Shown: positions 8,914-17,647, counted from the first letter of the stretch. The stretch is DNA of 64,000 nucleotides from an uncultured Planctomycetota bacterium (GCA_963737655.1 CAVTTN010000002.1:1664001-1728000); one strand, 5' to 3'. The notes: a model not told the origin generated them from the sequence alone. A program made the numbers and translations.

Positions 8914-9104
8914 GGCTCGGCAACCGGTCGAGCCGGGGAGGGGGATGCGATGCCCGTTCGGCCGTTCGCGCCTCGTCGCCGTGCCGGTCGTCGCGTCGCC
9001 GTGCCGGTCGTCGCGTCGCCGTCGGCCGCGCCCCGCGTCGTCGCCGCCCGGGGTGGCGCGCGTGGTCGCCGCCGGCGGTCGTGCCCCGCGCGGTCGCGCC
9101 GCCT

Positions 9105-9484
9105 CTTCGTGAACTCTTTGGCTGGGAACGGCCATCGACGCGCGACACTACCCCAACCCCAGGCTTTGTGGCCGGGCAGCGGCGAGGTCCGGGTAGCAAA
9201 CCGACGGATTCAAGAGCGGCGGACGAGGCGCGGGCCGAGAGGGGAGTCGGTTACGCTTGCAGTCTCTTCGACGGGAACATCCCCGCGAGTCGGCTCGCGG
9301 GGCGTCGCCAATGACCGGATCACGACCTCTCGGGCCAGGCTAACCTACGGGCAGGGAGCACCAAGGTGGAGACGGCCGGGAGGCCCGCGCCACACTCAGG
9401 CTACGCCGCGCCGGGTCGGCGGGCAAGTCGTCCCCGACCCCCGTTCACGCCCCGTCGGGAGCGGACGAAGGCCGCAGGATGGTT
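9105..9484 (-). mobile_element. 380-bp non-autonomous IS110-derived mini-element, copy 1, inserted in attC
   Basis: Inserted at GCCT|AAC; homologous to the non-coding end of the IS110 at 13049-13337; no transposase ORF. Confidence 0.9.
9230..9392 (-). ncRNA. putative bridge RNA of the mini-element (boundaries approximate; also present in copies 2-4)
   Basis: Two stem-enclosed loops on the minus strand; AGGTTAG (plus CTAACCT 9340-9346) matches the attC target; CGAAGAG (plus CTCTTCG 9264-9270) matches the element end junction 9103-9109. Confidence 0.7.
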
Positions 9485-9579
9485 AACCTCGCGCTGCAGC
9501 GGACCCCACCCGCCGCATCGGTTTCTGGTAGATTCAAGGTCGCTCGTGCGGGTGGGTCCGCTGAGCTTGGCCGTTAGGC
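9485..9579 (+). other. attC site 1 (R'' box split by mini-element)
   Basis: AAC...GCTGCAGCGGACCCCACCCGC / GCGGGTGGGTCCGCTGAGC...GTTAGGC with extrahelical bases. Confidence 0.9.
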
Positions 9580-10565
9580 GGCTCAGGAGTCGAAGCCTTC
9601 GGTCGTGCTCGTCGTCGGCCTCGCCGGTCGCGCCTCGGCTCGACGACGCCATCGGTCGGGCCCCTGGAGTCGGCCTCGGCGGTGGTGCGCGTCGTCGCCC
9701 TCGCCGGCCGCGCCCCCGAGGTCGGGCCCGTCGGCCGGCGCCCCCTTGCCAACGCCGTCGGTCCGTGCCAGGATCGTCGGTGTCGGCGCGTGGGGCGTCG
9801 CCGGGCGCCGCCTAACCCGGCGCTGCAGCGGACCCGGCCCGCGGTCGACGATCACTCTCCTCTCAATCTCGCCGGGCGCGGGCCGGTCCGCTGAGCTTTG
9901 TCGTTAGGCGGCTCAGGAGTCGAAGCCTTCGGTCGTGCTCGTCGTCGGCCTCGCCGGTCGCGCCTCGGCTCGACGACGCCATCGGTCGGGCCCCTGGAGT
10001 CGGCCTCGGCGGTGGTGCGCGTCGTCGCCCTCGCCGGCCGCGCCCCCGAGGTCGGGCCCGTCGGCCGGCGCCCCCTTGCCAACGCCGTCGGTCCGTGCCA
10101 GGATCGTCGGTGTCGGCGCGTGGGGCGTCGCCGGGGCGCCGCCTAACCCGGCGCTGCAGCGGACCCGGCCCGCGGTCGACGATCACTCTCCTCTCAATCT
10201 CGCCGGGCGCGGGCCGGTCCGCTGAGCTTTGTCGTTAGGCGGCTCAGGAGTCGAAGCCTTCGGTCGTGCTCGTCGTCGGCCTCGCCGGTCGTGCCTCGGC
10301 TCGACGACGCCATCGGTCGGGCCCCTGGAGTCGGCCTCGGCGGTGGTGCGCGTCGTCGCCCTCGCCGGCCGCGCCCCCGAGGTCGGGCCCGTCGGCCGGC
10401 GCCCCCTTGCCAACGCCGTCGGTCCGTGCCAGGATCGTCGGTGTCGGCGCGTGGGGCGTCGCCGGGGCGCCGCCTAACCCGGCGCTGCAGCGGACCCGGC
10501 CCGCGGTCGACGATCACTCTCCTCTCAATCTCGCCGGGCGCGGGCCGGTCCGCTGAGCTTTGTCG
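9574..10565 (+). repeat. three tandem copies (330/331/331 bp) of an apparently ORF-less cassette, each with an intact attC (9810-9909, 10141-10240, 10472-10571)
   Basis: Near-identical units bounded by G|TTAGGC crossovers; attC GCCTAAC...GTTAGGC, 100 bp. Confidence 0.9.
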
Positions 10566-10652
10566 TTAGGCGGCTAGGAGATGACGTCGCCGGAAGCACG
10601 CACAATCCGACGACCCTTTCGATGGAACGGCCGATCTCGCGGCGGGGCGTTT

Positions 10653-11543
10653 ATGGCTTTCCTGCGGATGTCGGTCCTCGGCCTCACAGGCGTCATCGCA
10701 ATGGTCGCCCTCGCATTGGCGTCTCTTCGCTACTCGACGCCGAACGTGGCGCGATGGAGCCTGACGGCGGTCTTCCTGATCCACGGGCTCGCGATCCTCG
10801 CCGCGATCTATCGACGTGGGGCGACTCGCGCCTTCTGGCTGGGCTTTGCCCTGATGGGCGGGGGCTATCTGGGCCTCTCCTCCGGCTCGTGGACGCTCAC
10901 CCAAAAGGAAGATGACTTGTACAAGAATGGATTCTTCGTGGATTTCGCCGGCGTTCACGGCGCGGTGCGTGAACCGGCCCCGCTCGGACACTGGCTAGGT
11001 ACAACGGCCCTCCTCGACTCGCTACGCATCGGGATTCAGATCGACAACGGCACCGGCTCGCCCCCGAACAGGCTGGAAGGATTGTTCGACTTCGATCGCA
11101 GGAGAAGTGCCATGCTCGCCGCGTTAGACCGGCCGCTTGAGATGCCGTTTCCACGAGAAACTCCGCTCGATGACGTGCTGAATTACATCAAGGTCTCGAC
11201 TCGCACCGCGGCCCTGCCGGACGGGATCCCGATCTACGTCGATCCGATCGGGCTGGTGGAGGCGGAGAAGACGATGTCGTCGGGCGTGAGCCTGGAAGTG
11301 AAGGGCATCCCGCTTCGGAGGTCACTGCCCCTGATCCTCGGGCAGGTCGATCTGGCGTGCGTCGTTGATGCCGATCTTGTGACGATCACCAGCCGTACCC
11401 GCGCCTCGGTGACGGACCGCGTCGAGGCGTTTCGCCGCATCGGGCACAGCCTATTCGCCTTGATATTCGCCGTCATCGGCGGGGTTGCTGCTTGTACCCT
11501 AAGGACGAAGCCTGAAAGATCCACCCACGCCGCCTCCCCGTGA
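10653..11543 (+). CDS. cassette-borne planctomycete membrane protein (paralog of 52698-53603 and 53600-54481)
   Basis: N-terminal TM helices, YRRGATRAFWLGFAL, MPFPRETPLDDVLNYIK...GIPIYVDPIGL domain; alternative start 10581. Confidence 0.8.
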   Translation: MAFLRMSVLGLTGVIAMVALALASLRYSTPNVARWSLTAVFLIHGLAILAAIYRRGATRAFWLGFALMGGGYLGLSSGSWTLTQKEDDLYKNGFFVDFAGVHGAVREPAPLGHWLGTTALLDSLRIGIQIDNGTGSPPNRLEGLFDFDRRRSAMLAALDRPLEMPFPRETPLDDVLNYIKVSTRTAALPDGIPIYVDPIGLVEAEKTMSSGVSLEVKGIPLRRSLPLILGQVDLACVVDADLVTITSRTRASVTDRVEAFRRIGHSLFALIFAVIGGVAACTLRTKPERSTHAASP

Positions 11544-11695
11544 ACTCTTCGCGCCGGCGGTTCGGCATCGGTTGATACTATGTGGGCGTGATCATCGATC
11601 GGCCCGCATCCCCCCCGGCCCCCGCGACGACGGGGACGGCCCGATCCGGCTCGGCGGGGCTTGCGGCCGGGCGCCCCGCCTCCGACCCGTCGCCC

Positions 11696-13048
11696 TCACG
11701 ACGGCGGCGACGGCGGCGACTTCGCCACCAGCTCGTAGCCCAGCGACCTCGCCTTGCGCCGCAGCGAACGCTCCTGCTTCCGCCTCACCTCCGCCTCGTA
11801 CTCCGCCAGCGACCTCGACACGTACTCCTCGCCGTGCCTGAGCAGCCGGTACACCAGCCGCGACAGCTTGTGCGCCGTCGCCGTGATCGCCCCGCGGCCG
11901 CCGATCCGGCCCTTGATCCGCCGGTAGAACTGGCCCGTCGCCGTCGCCGTCCGGCCCGCCGCCTGCGCCGCCATCCGCAGCGCCTGACCCACCCGGTTCT
12001 TGCCCTTGCGGGGCGTGCGACGCCGCTCGGTCTTGTTGCTCCGGTCGGTCCGCGGGCAGAGGCCCAGCCAGCTGGCGAAGTGCTTCTCGCTCGGGAACCG
12101 CCCCACGTCGCCGCCGAGCTCCGCCAGGATCACCGTCGCCGTCGTCGCGTCGATCCCCTCGATGGCCGTCAGGTCGACGCCGATCGCCCGGGCCAGCTTG
12201 GCCGGGGCGTCGAACCGCACGTCGTTGGCCTTGCGGCCGCGACGCCGCGGCCTCGGGGCGACCGGCTCGCCCCCGGAGCGGTCGGGCAGGCGGTCCAGCT
12301 CCTCGGCGATCCGGGCGTCGCACTCGTCGACCTGGCGGTGGAGGTACTGGTACAGGTCGGACGCCTGCTTCAGGGCGAACAGGTGCTCGGGCCGCCAGGT
12401 GCCCTCCAGGGCCCGGGCGATCTCCGCCTCGTCCCGGGCGCACCGCTCGTGCCGCAGCGCGGCCAGCCTCGCCGGGTCGCGCTCGCCGGCGAGGATGGCG
12501 GCGATGATCGCCGTGCCGGTGACGCCCGTGATGCTGCTGACGACCTCGGTCAGCTTCACATTCATCTGCTCCAAAGCCTTCTGCATGTGCTGGACGTGGT
12601 GCGAGGCGTACCGCACGAGCATCTGCCGCTGCCGCCAGTAGCCGCGCAGGGCCAGGACGGCCCCGGGCGGGCGGAAGGACGGGCGGAGCAGGCCGCAGGC
12701 GTGGAGGCGCTGGAGCCACTGGCAGTCGAGCCGGTCGGTCTTGGGCCGGGCGCCGCAGTGGCTGGCCTGGCTCGGCTCGATGAGGAAGACCTCGAAGCCG
12801 CGCGATTCGAGCAGCTCGAACAGGGGGATCCAGTAGACGCCGGTGGACTCCAGGACCACCGAGGTGACGCCCTCGGCCCGGAACCAATCGGCCAGGGCGT
12901 GGAGGTCGGCCGAGCAGGCGCCGAAGGTGCGGACCCGTCCGGGCCCGACGCAGGCGACGTGGTTGTCGGAGTGGACGTCGACGGCGGCGGCGTGGGGGTG
13001 GACGACCGGCAGGGACGCGTCGGGATCGGGGGGCGTGCGGCGACTCAT
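11696..13048 (-). CDS. IS110-family DEDD recombinase/transposase
   Basis: AAVDVH, LESTGVYW, KTDRLDC (DEDD RuvC-like); FPSEKHFASWLGLCP...SN; ATAHKL. Confidence 0.95.
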   Translation of the reverse strand: MSRRTPPDPDASLPVVHPHAAAVDVHSDNHVACVGPGRVRTFGACSADLHALADWFRAEGVTSVVLESTGVYWIPLFELLESRGFEVFLIEPSQASHCGARPKTDRLDCQWLQRLHACGLLRPSFRPPGAVLALRGYWRQRQMLVRYASHHVQHMQKALEQMNVKLTEVVSSITGVTGTAIIAAILAGERDPARLAALRHERCARDEAEIARALEGTWRPEHLFALKQASDLYQYLHRQVDECDARIAEELDRLPDRSGGEPVAPRPRRRGRKANDVRFDAPAKLARAIGVDLTAIEGIDATTATVILAELGGDVGRFPSEKHFASWLGLCPRTDRSNKTERRRTPRKGKNRVGQALRMAAQAAGRTATATGQFYRRIKGRIGGRGAITATAHKLSRLVYRLLRHGEEYVSRSLAEYEAEVRRKQERSLRRKARSLGYELVAKSPPSPPS

Positions 13049-13084
13049 GGCGAGGGCTCCGGCGGGTGGGGGGCCAAGCCGTCG

Positions 13085-13250
13085 CGGGCCGAGAGGGGGT
13101 CCGGGGACGAGGTAGTCTCCCCGACGGGAACGTCGCGGGGCCGTGTTGACACGGCGCCGCGGGTCACCAATGATGGGGCCACGGCCTCTCGGGCCATGCT
13201 AACCTGCGGGCGGCGAGCACCAGGGAGATGACGGCCGGGAGGCCCGCGAC
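13085..13250 (-). ncRNA. putative IS110 bridge RNA (boundaries approximate)
   Basis: Non-coding end upstream of the transposase; CTAACCT 13199-13205 matches the target; CTCCCCG 13117-13123 matches the element end junction 11534-11540. Confidence 0.75.
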
Positions 13251-13337
13251 GGCGTGCCCCAGCGTATCGCGCCCGGTGGTCGGGGCCACCCCCGGTTCAC
13301 GTCCGTCGGGGAGCGGTCGGAGACGGCGCGGAGAGTT

Positions 13338-13435
13338 AACCTCGCGCTGCAGCGGACCCCGGCCACGGGCCGCGCTTTCTCCGTTGTCATAGCTCACTGG
13401 TCCGTGGCCGGGTCCGCTGAGCTTGGTCGTTAGGC
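13338..13435 (+). other. attC site 5 (split by IS110)
   Basis: AAC..GCTGCAGCGGACC..GGTCCGCTGAGC..GTTAGGC. Confidence 0.9.
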
Positions 13436-13447
13436 GGCTCGGTGGCG

Positions 13448-13717
13448 ATGCCTGAAGTACCGCTCGCTCACCTCGTATTCCTGCGGCGTGGCTCCGTACT
13501 CATCGTCAAGCGGCCCGAGGTCGACTGGCGGCAACTCCAAGACGAATACGACGACTACATGGCGTCGCTCGGCCCTTGGTCGGAGGACGACATCTGCGAG
13601 CACTTCGCGCTTGACTACGGGGAGGACGATCGCCGCTGGCCGTTCACGCGGTCGGCCATCGGCGAGTTCATGCGCGCGGCTGGCCCGGTCGTGCTGGAGT
13701 CGGCCGCCTCTTCGTGA
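13448..13717 (+). CDS. cassette hypothetical protein (acidic, about 90 aa)
   Basis: ORF fills the cassette; stop codon supplied by mini-element 2. Confidence 0.7.
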   Translation: MPEVPLAHLVFLRRGSVLIVKRPEVDWRQLQDEYDDYMASLGPWSEDDICEHFALDYGEDDRRWPFTRSAIGEFMRAAGPVVLESAASS

Positions 13718-14089
13718 ACTCTTTGGCTGGGAACGGCCATCGACGCGCAACACTACCCCAACCCCAGGCTTTGTGGCCGGGCAGCGGCGAGGTCCGGGTA
13801 GCAAACCGACGGATTCAAGAGCGGCGGACGAGGCGCGGGCCGAGAGGGGAGTCGGTTACGCTTGCAGTCTCTTCGACGGGAACATCCCCGCGAGTCGGCT
13901 CGCGGGGCGTCGCCAATGACCGGATCACGACCTCTCGGGCCAGGCTAACCTACGGGCAGGGAGCACCAAGGTGGAGACGGCCGGGAGGCCCGCGCCACAC
14001 TCAGGCTACGCCGCGCCGGGTCGGCGGGCAAGTCGTCCCCGACCCCCGTTCACGCCCCGTCGGGAGCGGACGAAGGCCGCAGGATGGTT
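13710..14089 (-). mobile_element. 380-bp IS110-derived mini-element, copy 2
   Basis: Near-identical to copy 1 (one substitution seen); inserted at GCCT|AAC. Confidence 0.9.
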
Positions 14090-14184
14090 AACCTTGCGCT
14101 GCAGCGGACCCCACCCGCCGCGACGGTTTTGGTACTATCCGAGGTCGCTCGGGCGGGTGGGTCCGCTGAGCTTTGTCGTTAGGC
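14090..14184 (+). other. attC site 6 (split)
   Basis: attC hairpin ending GTTAGGC 14178-14184. Confidence 0.9.
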
Positions 14185-14199
14185 GGCGGAGATTTTATC

Positions 14200-14820
14200 G
14201 TGCATCGAGCGATGTTCGTACTCACGGCCCTATTAACCGCCGGGTGCGGACAAGATCTATCTTCGAAGACGCCCCCGATCCTTTCGAAGGCTCTCCCCGA
14301 CTCGGGTCGCCGTGTGATTGATGCCGATCGGGTTGTAAAAGTTGCAGGGCGGACTCTCCCGGATGTTCCCCTCGTCGTGAACGGCGCGACGGGGGAGTCC
14401 GACTCCGCTGGTCATGCACTGTTCACGCTCAAAGGCGGACCGGAGCGAGTTCTGGCATCTGATCCCATCCTCAGCATCGCGCACGTCAAGATCGCGCCGG
14501 ACCGATCCGTCGGGGTCGAGAGCCGGGGAACCACGAGCGGGAATACACCCGACAAGTTCGTCTGGGACGAGCATCGCGATTTCAAGATCAATGGACAGCC
14601 GGCCACTTTGAGCCTTCGTCTGGATGGGCGCAATCATAGCCTACAAGTTGCCGGCGAGACCTTCGATCTCGCCCGAGGTAATTTCTTCACCGTCAGGCTG
14701 GCGGCCGGTTCACGTCTGGTCGCTGAACAGTTTCCACTGATTGATGTCATCGAGGATGATCCGCCCAAAGTTGAAGCCAGATTCACTGGATTCGAGAAAT
14801 CTCGACAAGGTGGTAAGTAG
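14200..14820 (+). CDS. cassette hypothetical lipoprotein
   Basis: Lipobox LTAGC after a hydrophobic stretch; lower GC. Confidence 0.7.
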   Translation: MHRAMFVLTALLTAGCGQDLSSKTPPILSKALPDSGRRVIDADRVVKVAGRTLPDVPLVVNGATGESDSAGHALFTLKGGPERVLASDPILSIAHVKIAPDRSVGVESRGTTSGNTPDKFVWDEHRDFKINGQPATLSLRLDGRNHSLQVAGETFDLARGNFFTVRLAAGSRLVAEQFPLIDVIEDDPPKVEARFTGFEKSRQGGK

Positions 14821-14865
14821 CTGTGGCCTTGCCTAAGCTTCGGCCGGCGTAGCGGCGAGATGCCT

Positions 14866-15245
14866 CTTCGTGAACTCTTTGGCTGGGAACGGCCATCGAC
14901 GCGCGACACTACCCCAACCCCAGGCTTTGTGGCCGGGCAGCGGCGAGGTCCGGGTAGCAAACCGACGGATTCAAGAGCGGCGGACGAGGCGCGGGCCGAG
15001 AGGGGAGTCGGTTACGTTTGCAGTCTCTTCGACGGGAACATCCCCGCGAGTCGGCTCGCGGGGCGTCGCCAATGACCGGATCACGACCTCTCGGGCCAGG
15101 CTAACCTACGGGCAGGGAGCACCAAGGTGGAGACGGCCGGGAGGCCCGCGCCACACTCAGGCTACGCCGCGCCGGGTCGGCGGGCAAGTCGTCCCCGACC
15201 CCCGTTCACGCCCCGTCGGGAGCGGACGAAGGCCGCAGGATGGTT
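14866..15245 (-). mobile_element. 380-bp IS110-derived mini-element, copy 3
   Basis: Near-identical to copy 1 (one substitution seen); inserted at GCCT|AAC. Confidence 0.9.
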
Positions 15246-15341
15246 AACCTCGCGCTGCAGCGGACCCCGCACCGCCGCGGCGATTCTTGTGTTATCATCG
15301 CGTTCTCGGCGGTGCGGGTCCGCTGAGCTTTGGCGTTAGGC
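15246..15341 (+). other. attC site 7 (split)
   Basis: attC hairpin ending GTTAGGC 15335-15341. Confidence 0.9.
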
Positions 15342-15369
15342 GGCTCGGCGAAGATGCCTCGGGACACCC

Positions 15370-15765
15370 GTGACGTTCGACCCCGACCGAATCATGACCC
15401 TCTCGACCATGCAGTTCCGACGTTTCGGAATCGCGTGCTGCTATCGGTTGGGGTGCGACCGCAAAGACAAGCGTCTCGCGAAGGCGCTCAAGAGACTGGA
15501 GCAATCGCTGGGGCCGCCGGCCGACGAGAGCATGCGTCGTGACGCGCTCAACGCCGCCAACTCCGCTTGCCGAGACCTCTCCGCAAGCAGCGGCGTGATA
15601 CAGGTCGTTGCCCGCACCCTTGTTTGTGCCTGCTGGGACGGTCCCAATGAGAATCTGATTGGGAATTTCGAAGCGGCGCTTGAACAAGGAGAGCACTTGA
15701 GCAGGTCCGAGATCAAGGACATTGAAAGCGAGATCTTTCGGGCTATCCTGGGCGCCTCTTCGTGA
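15370..15765 (+). CDS. cassette hypothetical protein
   Basis: ORF fills the cassette; stop codon supplied by mini-element 4. Confidence 0.7.
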   Translation: MTFDPDRIMTLSTMQFRRFGIACCYRLGCDRKDKRLAKALKRLEQSLGPPADESMRRDALNAANSACRDLSASSGVIQVVARTLVCACWDGPNENLIGNFEAALEQGEHLSRSEIKDIESEIFRAILGASS

Positions 15766-16137
15766 ACTCTTTGGCTGGGAACGGCCATCGACGCGCGACA
15801 CTACCCCAACCCCAGGCTTTGTGGCCGGGCAGCGGCGAGGTCCGGGTAGCAAACCGACGGATTCAAGAGCGGCGGACGAGGCGCGGGCCGAGAGGGGAGT
15901 CGGTTACGCTTGCAGTCTCTTCGACGGGAACATCCCCGCGAGTCGGCTCGCGGGGCGTCGCCAATGACCGGATCACGACCTCTCGGGCCAGGCTAACCTA
16001 CGGGCAGGGAGCACCAAGGTGGAGACGGCCGGGAGGCCCGCGCCACACTCAGGCTACGCCGCGCCGGGTCGGCGGGCAAGTCGTCCCCGACCCCCGTTCA
16101 CGCCCCGTCGGGAGCGGACGAAGGCCGCAGGATGGTT
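15758..16137 (-). mobile_element. 380-bp IS110-derived mini-element, copy 4
   Basis: Matches copy 1; inserted at GCCT|AAC. Confidence 0.9.
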
Positions 16138-16232
16138 AACCTGGCGCTGCAGCGGACCCGGCCCGCCGCGGTAGTTTCCGTGCTATCATCGGTCTGCTCG
16201 GCGGGCCGGTCCGCTGAGCTTGGTCGTTAGGC
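16138..16232 (+). other. attC site 8 (split)
   Basis: attC hairpin ending GTTAGGC 16226-16232. Confidence 0.9.
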
Positions 16233-16372
16233 GGTTCGGGCACCGTTGGATCGCGCGGCGAAATCCAGAAGTCCCAACGGCAGCCCCTTGTCATCCGCCG
16301 CCGGGATCGATAGGGTCGCCGGCGTCGGTGCCACGCAGCGGAGCGAGGCTTGTCTAATCAGGGGCGTAATCC

Positions 16373-16582
16373 ATGAAAGCCTGGAAGAAAACCTTCCCTT
16401 CGATCGGGTTCGCGATCGCCGCCGTGGCATTCCTATTCGCCGGTTTGGAGGAGCGGGTCATCGCTGGGGGGCGGCTCCGCTACCCCATGCTGAGCTTGGC
16501 ATTCTTGTACTTCGTCTTAGCCTTCGTATTCTTCGACCGAGGCCGGAAGTCAGGTGGCGAGACCGGACCGCCAAATGCCTGA
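16373..16582 (+). CDS. cassette small membrane protein (2 TM)
   Basis: AGGGG upstream; two hydrophobic segments. Confidence 0.6.
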   Translation: MKAWKKTFPSIGFAIAAVAFLFAGLEERVIAGGRLRYPMLSLAFLYFVLAFVFFDRGRKSGGETGPPNA

Positions 16583-16651
16583 CCTGCTGGCTAGCCCGGG
16601 CGATGCGGCGAGGAGGAACGATCGTCAGCGGCATTCAAGGTCTCCCGGCCT

Positions 16652-17647
16652 CCCCGTGAACTCTTCGCGCCGACGGTTCGACATCGGTTGATACTATGTG
16701 GGCGTGATCATCGATCGGGGTCAAAAAGGGGACGGGGGTCAAAAAGGGGACGGGGGTCAAAAAGGGGACGGGGTCAAAAAGGGGACGGAGCGAATAAATT
16801 CAGCTTTTTGCATTTTGCCGCGTCTCATCCAGGCCGAACTTATTCGCTCCGTCCCCTTTTCGGCCCCCGCCGTCCCCTTTTCGGCCCCCGCGTCCCCTTT
16901 TCGGCCCCCGTCCCCTTTTCGGCCCCTCTGCCGCTGCCGCCAGTAGCCGCGCAGGGCCAGGACCGCGGCCGGCGGGCGGAAGGACGGGCGGAGCAGGCCG
17001 CACGAGTGGAGGCGCCGGAGCCACTGGCAGTCGAGCCGGTCGGTCTTGGGCCGGGCGCCGCAGTGGCTGGCCTGGCTCGGCTCGATGAGGAAGACCTCGA
17101 AGCCGCGCGATTCGAGCAGCTCGAACAGGGGGATCCAGTAGACGCCGGTGGACTCCAGGACCACCGAGGTGACGCCCTCGGCCCGGAACCAGTCGGCCAG
17201 GGCGTGGAGGTCGGCCGAGCAGGCGCCGAAGGTGCGGACCCGTCCGGGTCCGACGCAGGCGACGTGGTTGTCGGAGTGGACGTCGACGGCCGCGGCGTGG
17301 GGGTGGATGACCGGCAGGGTCGCGTCGGGATCGGGCGGCTTGCGACGGCTCATCGGGCGGCTCCGGCGGGTTGGGGCGTGGGGGCCGAGCCGCCGCGAGC
17401 CGAGAGGGGGGCCGGGGACGAGCAGTCTCCCCGACGGGAACGTCGCGGCGCCGCGTTGACACGGCGTCGCGGGTCACCAATGATGGGGCCACGGCTTCTC
17501 GGGCCAGGCTAACCTGCGGGCGGCGAGCACCAGGGAAGGGACGGCCGGGAGGCTCGCGACGGCGTGCCCCAGCGTATCGCGCCCGGTGGTCGGGGCCACC
17601 CCCGGTTCACGTCCGTCGGGGAGCGGTCGGAGACGGCGCGGAGAGTT
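16652..17647 (-). mobile_element. internally deleted IS110 copy in attC (both ends and bridge region retained; transposase truncated, 16927-17353)
   Basis: High identity to 11536-13337 at both ends; about 1 kb replaced by a palindromic repeat block. Confidence 0.9.
16719..16926. repeat. palindromic tandem-repeat block (REP-like)
   Basis: 4x TCAAAAAGGGGACGG, central IR GGAGCGAATAA/TTATTCGCTCC, 4x GTCCCCTTTT(T)CGGCCCC. Confidence 0.8.

Follow-up and report, generated by a model that had tools for sequence, protein, structure and literature searches.

Putative guide words matched to target and element end in an IS110-family element and its transposase-less companion at attC sites

In a 64,000-nucleotide stretch from an uncultured Planctomycetota bacterium (GCA_963737655.1, CAVTTN010000002.1:1664001-1728000; "the window" below means this whole stretch), six mobile elements lie at the same point of attC sites, the imperfect palindromes (R'' RYYYAAC ... 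R' GTTRRRY) that stand behind each cassette of an integron. All are antisense to the cassettes, and each repeats in its interior a short word of its own end and a short word of its target. How is this one point recognized, and what do the internal words contribute? The six comprise one full and one broken copy of a long insertion sequence (IS) of the IS110 family and four copies of a short element without a transposase gene (the mini element, or mini). A preliminary description of the window had taken the internal 7-mers to be the donor- and target-binding guide segments of a bridge RNA with a CT-like core, and had expected the system to be naturally reprogrammable. We consider it highly probable that the long element is an IS110 element with a bridge (seek) RNA in its 5' non-coding region, and that the mini is a transposase-less relative with an RNA module of its own, the donor guide of which fits its own end. 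The window has 69% G+C and belongs to a 7.6-Mb genome in three contigs; the features are listed in Table 1.

Guide words and the predicted RNA that holds them

On the + strand of the window the words begin where the preliminary description had placed them (CTCCCCG at 11534, 13117, 16650 and 17427; CTCTTCG at 9103 and 9264; CTAACCT at 9340, 13199 and 17509), although it gave one mini, whereas the window holds four (from 9103, 13708, 14864 and 15756), all with the same internal words. The 7-mer at the junction is indeed identical to an internal one in both element types, but its leading CT is the shared core, which at the junction derives from the target, so that the element-specific match is five bases plus the core. 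The two bases by which the donor words of IS and mini differ were said to switch together in the end and in the internal copy, and they do so throughout the genome: both words read CTCTTCG in 28 of 28 mini copies and CTCCCCG in seven of the eight IS copies (the eighth is a 655-bp fragment without the region), all of these with CTAACCT. CTAACCT is found six times on the + strand of the window, once at the homologous position in each of the six elements, and never on the - strand. It equals the empty target that had been reconstructed, and real empty sites, reading CGC-CT-AACCT-(C/G/T)GCGCTGCAGCGGACCC, exist in the genome.

These identities might be due to chance or to the common descent of copies. 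The donor words are frequent in the window (CTCCCCG 16 times on + and 22 times on -, CTCTTCG 20 and 11 times, i.e., 38 and 31 on both strands), copies within one genome are not independent, and a single donor identity is weak evidence because such words are common in DNA of this base composition. The donor identity nevertheless carries weight, because the words stand in homologous columns of the IS/mini alignment, because two bases switch as a pair, and because the pattern holds for the whole genome.

A consensus structure of the transposase strand was computed with RNAalifold from 21 sequences (19 distinct relatives and the two of the window), and pairs were counted after removal of two short helices judged spurious. 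It contains five helices: an outer helix P1; P2 (GGCCG/UGGCC), which closes the first loop around the invariant hairpin P3 (UGGUGC..GCCCG); and P4 (GAGAGG/CCUCUY), which closes the second loop around the variable inner hairpin P5. Among its 37 pairs 95.7% of the cells are paired and 16 pairs show changes on both sides; none of 500 shuffles reached any of five measures, and pairing falls to 40-47% when the partners are slid by 1-3 columns. The compensatory changes are in P1 and P5. Two similar stem-enclosed loops, as the preliminary description had them, are thus supported by a consensus with compensatory changes, and both 7-mers lie in loops rather than stems, namely in the unpaired 3' strands of the two internal loops: the target word AGGUUAG between P3 and the 3' half of P2, and the donor word (CGGGGAG in the IS, CGAAGAG in the mini) between P5 and the 3' half of P4. 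Each word follows CCCG(U/C) and lies opposite UGG(U/C)G, as had been noticed, although UGG(U/C)G is an invariant motif of the inner hairpin and not a guide. As in a bridge RNA, a structured non-coding region with two internal loops here adjoins a recombinase gene.

The recombinase combines a DEDD/RuvC-like N-terminal domain (PF01548, 63.4 bits, cut-off 29, E 2.6e-17) and a C-terminal Transposase_20 domain (PF02371, 64.8 bits, cut-off 21.3, E 9.9e-18) in one protein, which places it in the IS110 family sensu lato. The C-terminal domain of the family bears the motif G--P----SG (PMC11187229). In the protein of the window, residues ~329-338 read GLCPRTDRSN, with the spacing and the serine kept and Asn in place of the usual Gly. 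The non-coding sequence of the IS amounts to 294 nt upstream of the gene vs 162 nt downstream. The upstream stretch, from the left end to the start codon, can be aligned with its counterpart in the mini and with relatives.

All 36 insertions of the genome (28 mini, eight IS) share one junction context on the + strand, ..GC-CT-[element]-TT-AACCT.., except for one left flank with a final A in place of C. On the strand of the transposase the target reads ..GCGCG-AGGTT-AG-GCGGC..; the elements start with AA-CTCTCC (IS) or AA-CCATCC (mini) and end with ..GTTCA-CGGGG or ..GTTCA-CGAAG, respectively, after which AG follows. The CT-like core applies to the + strand of the window (CT/TT); in the orientation of the transposase the core of the target is AG and that at the donor's left end AA. 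The insertion point is GCCT^AAC inside the R'' box, with one or two shared bases and no further duplication. Insertion of this kind is that of the IS110 family: it is specific to a site, the ends bear no terminal inverted repeats, and nothing of the target is duplicated beyond a short shared core. A 7-bp inverted repeat (CGTGAAC/GTTCACG) is present sub-terminally in the IS, its left copy at a distance of ~45 bp from the left end and its right copy 5 bp short of the right end; in relatives the repeat is longer than in the window.

Taken as a mechanism, the 5' non-coding region of the IS would encode a bridge (seek) RNA in which the loop that binds the target comes first and the one that binds the donor second. 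Once made and bound by the recombinase, this RNA would pair through AGGUUAG with the left target flank, i.e., the AACCT|CT part of the R'' box GCCTAAC in attC, and through the 3' strand of the donor loop (CGGGGAG) with the right element end plus core in the same manner. The RNA-bound recombinase would then join the joined ends of the element with the attC site by strand exchange at the core, and the element would land at GCCT^AAC, always antisense to the cassettes.

Covariation of guides and DNA among relatives

An alignment of four relatives served to search one genome per species and yielded 80 loci with 45-85% protein identity, mostly from Planctomycetota assemblies. The donor test comprised 62 elements, that of the window and 61 of the 80 loci, that had a donor word recognized by a regular expression and no less than 200 nt of sequence downstream of the gene (the other 19 were excluded); a match was counted when the first six bases of the donor word followed a sub-terminal TT[CA]N downstream of the gene. 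The element's own guide matched the right end in 57 of 62 loci, whereas foreign guides did so in 4 of 637 trials. Twelve variants of the donor guide were seen, including CGGGGAG, TGGGGAG, TTGGGAG, TTGGGAA, TTGAGAG, TTGGAAG, TTGAAAG, TTGTAAG and TTAGAAG, and for each of these nine at least one locus bears the same word at its right end.

The target test was confined to the closer group, in which 35 loci fit the loop pattern and 33 had enough upstream sequence; a match required the first five guide bases directly to the left of the AA-C start of the element, 117-149 nt upstream of the guide. Own guides matched the left flank in 29 of 33 loci and foreign ones in 2 of 330 trials; the target guides were of 11 kinds (AGGTT, CACAT, CATTT, CATGC, ACGCG, CATTC, GGGTT, AGCGA, GGATG, GGTGG, ATCGT). 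As the preliminary description would require, the 7-mers covary with the DNA in homologs, loop segments of bridge-RNA type changing with the target flank in 11 variants and with the element end in 12. Because own guides match their own DNA and foreign guides rarely do, natural re-targeting has occurred among the relatives, and the expected natural reprogrammability is borne out in this form. The family domains of the protein, the placement of the words in loops, and their covariation together support their reading as donor- and target-binding guide segments of a bridge RNA.

The same comparison bears on the other explanations. Chance or common descent is refuted as far as computation can do so by the own vs foreign tests over relatives from many genomes, and it would also have to account for the paired two-base switch between IS and mini and for a third such pair described below (on L028); its probability is negligible. 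The internal words might otherwise be sites in DNA, either repeated protein-binding words or single-strand DNA guides like those of IS200/IS605, and not parts of an RNA: identities on the same strand fit RNA and DNA alike, and short sub-terminal inverted repeats are present. Yet the DNA that the target guide matches lies outside the element, and 11 variants show guide and flank changing together; on the transposase strand the words stand in loops of a structure that compensatory changes preserve; the element contains no Y1 HUH transposase gene; and its enzyme is of the DEDD family, for which RNA guidance has been shown by experiment (PMC11208160, PMC11187229). We regard DNA sites as a very improbable explanation.

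Several results weigh against a guide-bearing bridge RNA, or at least against parts of it. P2 and P3 never vary and, being invariant, are outside the reach of covariation. Folds of single sequences are no better than those of shuffled ones (z -1.08 and -1.56), and in the minimum-energy fold of the mini AGGU of the target guide pairs with ACCU on the opposite strand of the loop. In 20 of the 21 sequences RNAalifold also has the donor guide's GGGG paired with a UCCC immediately upstream; the mini, which keeps all the other structure, cannot form this helix. Rfam gave no match at gathering score anywhere in the window, and between 9000 and 13450 nothing on the RNA region even at E up to 5, so that no Rfam family matches the predicted RNA. 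Own guides miss the right end in five of the 62 loci (L076, L092, L093, L098, L104) and the left flank in four of the 33 (L037, L038, L040, L084).

Guides on the opposite strands of the loops are also less clear than those of IS621, in which each loop holds two guides (PMC11208160). In some relatives the target loop has on its 5' strand 8-9 variable bases with convincing complementarity to the core and right flank (L034 UCGUC/GGCGA, L042 UACACU/AGTGTA, L046 UUACCU/AGGTAA, L047 AUUCCCU/AGGGGAT), but their register is not constant, the signal is weak (mean anchored run 4.3 own vs 3.25 foreign), and in the window pairing is confined to CCU with AGG, 3 nt. So short a match fits the biology: to the right lies the end of a cassette, which varies, and conserved attC sequence is confined to the left flank. 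Between the 5' strand of the donor loop and the element's left end no complementarity was detected among the relatives (4.56 own vs 4.50 foreign); one arm of the 7-bp inverted repeat is the site ~45 bp from the left end, and the other is at the right end. Finally, the 8-mer CCTAACCT occurs 17 times in the genome outside typical attC sites (three or four of these places are variant-attC-like) and is occupied at none of them, so that 7-8 nt are not the whole of target choice.

The mini element

The four mini copies of the window are 99-100% alike, and the genome holds 28, compared with six full and two partial copies of the long element. The mini has the full RNA architecture, the target guide and the invariant motifs of the IS, and its donor guide is changed at two positions exactly as its right end is. 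Like MITEs (miniature transposable elements with inverted repeats) it is short, lacks a transposase and has IS-like ends, and all 28 copies lie at the same attC position in the same orientation. A second species of the genus carries at least four mini copies with 83-86% identity, at the same attC position and with the same guides and right end; as judged by reading the sequences, the predicted stems stay paired in spite of the base changes. In a relative, L028 (contig DATCEM010000145.1, 2273 bases), an IS with 85% protein identity is directly followed by a mini at 1809-2230, the donor guide of which is TGAAGAG and the right end CATGAAG|AG, so that a private donor guide matched to its own end is found in three versions in all (IS, mini, L028 mini). 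The right end-AA-left end junction on this contig was considered as a circle and rejected, since it is that of the IS with the mini behind it. In the L028 mini the target-loop segment (CGGTTGGAG) is two bases longer than the neighbours' 7-mer.

Most likely the mini would supply its own RNA and borrow the recombinase of the IS. Excision of IS621 is reported to depend on recognition by the donor arm, and according to PMC11208160 mismatches are poorly tolerated; for these reasons the RNA of the resident IS would be expected to serve the mini badly, and we infer that the mini relies on its own RNA together with the enzyme of the IS. Alternatively, the RNA logic would hold for the IS only, and the mini copies would be relics of a lost IS with a CGAAG-type end, unmoved by the resident recombinase and with their own RNA unused. 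Mini and IS are ~75% identical over 167 bases of the RNA region and elsewhere alike at the extreme ends only, for which reason a recent deletion of the resident IS was rejected as the origin of the mini, and even their left ends start differently (CCATCC vs CTCTCC). Nor was an autonomous element with CGAAGAG found: an exact 18-mer at the donor guide led to 29 metagenome stretches, none with the target-loop context, a matching right end or a transposase, and a 16-base degenerate pattern to five matches other than the genome's own among 401 genomes of the phylum (400 of them further ones), none with the bridge context, such exact-pattern searches missing diverged copies. The assembly of the second species with mini copies, which is 77% complete, yielded no close transposase. 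Against relics stand the following observations: 22 of the 28 mini copies are at least 99.2% identical to the reference copy, a sign of recent spread; another species, at 83-86% identity, retains the guides, the right end and the predicted stems; IS and mini have the same invariant protein-side motifs (P2, P3, P4 and UGGUG..CCCG); and the two lie side by side on L028. We regard relics of this kind as unlikely.

For a mini that brings its own RNA a further-reaching proposal can be made, for and against which we find the scales about level: the mini may be an RNA-only satellite, with a complete bridge RNA of its own, a private donor loop (CGAAG/TGAAG), and the target loop and scaffold of its helper, which has outgrown this helper (28 vs six), lasted across species, and disabled about half of the attC sites in the integron and in its satellite arrays, its entry being gated by a 7-nt guide together with the attC hairpin. 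If so, a single cell would hold two orthogonal donor codes, both served by the same recombinase.

Table 1. Coordinates in the window of the mobile elements, their guide words and predicted RNAs, and two attC sites
Feature	Position	Strand	Remarks
IS target guide	13199..13205	-	RNA AGGUUAG = left target flank AGGTT + core AG; 3' strand of target loop
IS donor guide	13117..13123	-	RNA CGGGGAG = right element end CGGGG + core AG; 3' strand of donor loop
Mini copy 1 target guide	9340..9346	-	AGGUUAG
Mini copies 2-4 target guides	13945-13951, 15101-15107, 15993-15999		AGGUUAG
Mini copy 1 donor guide	9264..9270	-	CGAAGAG = own right end CGAAG + AG at 9103-9109
Mini copies 2-4 donor guides	13869-13875, 15025-15031, 15917-15923		CGAAGAG
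Predicted bridge/seek RNA core of IS	13069..13258	-	P1; target loop (P2 closing, P3 inner); donor loop (P4 closing, P5 inner)
Predicted bridge/seek RNA core of mini copy 1	9216..9399	-	Same architecture; ~75% identity to IS over 167 bases
Full IS110-family element with cores	11534..13337	-	1.8 kb; one of 6 full genome copies
CT core at right end of IS	11534-11535	+	
Body of IS	11536-13335	+	
TT core at left end of IS	13336-13337	+	
Transposase/recombinase gene	11696..13048	-	450 aa; DEDD (PF01548) + Transposase_20 (PF02371)
Broken IS copy	16650..17647	-	Both ends and RNA region kept; guides 17427-17433, 17509-17515
Mini copy 1	9103..9484	-	~380 bp with cores, no transposase open reading frame; left end, complete predicted bridge-RNA module, short right end
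Mini copy 2	13708..14089	-	
Mini copy 3	14864..15245	-	
Mini copy 4	15756..16137	-	
attC site with mini copy 1	9485..9582	+	R'' remainder AACCT abuts mini; R' GTTAGGC at far end
Empty attC site	9808..9912	+	CTAACCC, one mismatch vs target guide; again at 10139, 10470

Integron setting, target choice and comparison with known systems

Between 9.1 and 17.7 kb the window holds an array of short + strand open reading frames (ORFs), each followed by an imperfect palindrome of ~90 bp, GCCTAAC...GTTAGGC, and a site of this kind stands behind every mobile element. By motif and pattern search such motifs, with their two boxes ~85-90 bp apart, form arrays at eight places in the genome. One array, at 6.778 Mb and outside the window, is adjoined by an integron integrase gene (G000:C2:6777135-6778073; TIGR02249, 474.6 bits, cut-off 265), divergent from the first cassette; over ~15 kb this array contains two full IS, one partial IS and six mini copies. 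The other seven arrays, that of the window included, have no adjoining integrase. Repetitive extragenic palindromic (REP) elements were considered as targets and rejected in favour of attC, because the integrase adjoins one of the arrays.

Occupancy was counted with a single pattern for the left arm of attC across the genome. All 34 occupied sites have AACCT beside the element. Among the 63 other matches, 13 with CTAACCT, 13 with CTAACCC, six with CTGACCT and one each with CTAACCG, CGAACCT and CCAACCC are empty sites, and the rest are not attC-like. No insertion was found at a mismatched site among these pattern matches, in which the 13 empty CTAACCC sites are mostly one duplicated cassette and hence not independent. 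Empty sites read CGCCTAACCT, occupied ones CGC-CT-[element]-TT-AACCT. Selection against insertions within genes could account for some of the CCTAACCT words left unoccupied outside typical attC, and a determinant of the target in addition to the guide match is also likely. For ISPpu10 of Pseudomonas putida a stem-loop in the target, 5' of the paired bases, is reported as such an extra determinant, and the attC hairpin here is in the corresponding position; by analogy, it may help target recognition.

Some further observations concern the cassettes. A 331-bp cassette with its attC stands three times in tandem in the window (9490-10570) and recurs in other arrays of the genome; its CTAACCC copies are all unoccupied. 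Two relatives, L040 and L042, carry the guide GGGTTAG, which would fit this attC. Three cassette ORFs (10581-11543, 13442-13717, 15370-15765) run into an element and stop at the TGA of the element end (..GCC TCx xCG TGA; 11541-11543, 13715-13717, 15763-15765): the TAA of the R'' box is split by the insertion, and the in-frame stop comes two codons later. Three matches to the Rfam family CRISPR-DR29 below threshold (19.8-21.1 bits, gathering score 39; 9790-9826, 10120-10157 and 10451-10488, - strand) lie on empty attC sites and most likely reflect a chance likeness to palindromes.

In the broken IS ~1 kb of the interior is replaced by a palindromic, repeat-flanked insert (~16718-16945), in which a conserved core of ~90 bp is flanked by 2-4 tandem units of 18-19 nt (GGGGTCAAAAAGGGGACG type) in inverted orientation. 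Inserts of this type are also present at G000:C2 about 286700-286900 and 6792335-6792450, and ~70 related units occur in the genome; each of the two partial IS copies has such a small element in place of a large part of its interior.

Guidance of IS110/IS1111 elements by RNA through two loops was found by the same kind of covariation and published in 2024 (PMC11208160; PMC11187229), so that the bridge or seek RNA is in itself of a kind already known. With IS621 and ISEc21 the IS shares a DEDD recombinase with PF02371, an RNA upstream of the gene, a target loop followed by a donor loop, guides that contain the core and covary with target and donor, and the lack of duplication beyond the core (PMC11208160, PMC11187229). 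It differs from them in the long guide that pairs with the bottom strand, which is on the 5' side of the loop in IS621/ISEc21 and on the 3' side here, in the length of the guide (5+2 nt vs 8-9 nt in IS621), in the core (AG/AA vs CT), in the length of the protein (450 aa vs 315-385 aa in the IS621/ISEc21 subgroups, PMC11187229), and in the right-donor guide, which was not detected here. The subgroup around IS110 itself, with the RNA upstream and proteins of 395-455 aa, resembles the IS in both respects (PMC11187229). The guide order, on the other hand, is that of the IS1111 seekRNAs, with the top-strand-complementary guide 5' and the bottom-strand-complementary guide 3', the reverse of IS621/ISEc21 (PMC11187229).

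The IS1111-attC group (ISKpn4, ISPst6, ISPa21, ISPa25) inserts into attC near the 5' end and antisense to the cassettes, as the elements do here (PMC3001079), a likeness of behaviour and not of membership, sub-terminal inverted repeats being common to both. IS1111 elements have the RNA downstream of a transposase of 330-350 aa, whereas it is upstream of a 450-aa protein here, and their repeats are 11-13 bp long and lie 6-7 and 3 bp from the ends, in contrast to the 7-bp repeat of the IS with its left copy far inside (PMC11187229). Within the IS110 family the IS is a mixture of these traits, its tentative subgroup placement following protein length and gene order. Among plasmid records the best matches to the recombinase are 44-50% identical and labelled "IS110 family transposase" only. 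The nearest relative on an enterobacterial plasmid (L116; NZ_CP044029.1, 19748-21088; 44% identity), the same protein of which is found on 61 Citrobacter records and others, is an IS110-family element with a long upstream non-coding region and adjoins an IS66 element.

A close parallel for the pair of IS and mini is ISPpu9/MITEPpu9 of Pseudomonas putida: its core is likewise AG, it has its target within a repeated palindromic sequence (PMC12288879; preprint 10.64898/2026.03.19.712850), and its small companion, which has no transposase, is flanked by IS-like ends and can follow the IS immediately, as the mini does on L028 (PMC12288879). Ssr9, however, is reported as dispensable for transposition and, in the cited parts of that report, is not described as a bridge RNA, while the mini here carries a full predicted two-loop RNA; and the end boxes of MITEPpu9 are 1-3 mismatches from those of its IS, with no matched guide change reported in the same parts, while the guide of the mini has changed with its end (PMC12288879). 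A literature search that covered few subscription journals found no published IS110 companion that lacks a transposase but has a two-loop RNA of its own with a donor code to match.

Less ordinary than the bridge RNA as such are three traits: the long guides on the 3' strand of the loops in spite of an RNA upstream of the gene, the targeting of attC by an IS110-type enzyme of 450 aa in a planctomycete-like genome, and a mini that keeps a complete predicted RNA with a private donor guide and outnumbers the full IS 28 to six. For the integrons of this genome, IS and mini at 34 of ~70 attC-like sites, at the R'' box, should block excision of the cassettes concerned. For the family, long (450 aa) IS110-type recombinases, mostly of Planctomycetota, with 5+2 nt guides on 3' strands and at least 11 natural target specificities, add a new clade with many natural target guides. 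The two bases that change together in guide and element end give, within one genome, a clean natural counterpart of a donor-reprogramming experiment. If the satellite-like mini truly brings its own RNA, it would offer a ready-made orthogonal pair of donor codes for one enzyme, and a guide-RNA gene that lives as a parasite of a recombinase.

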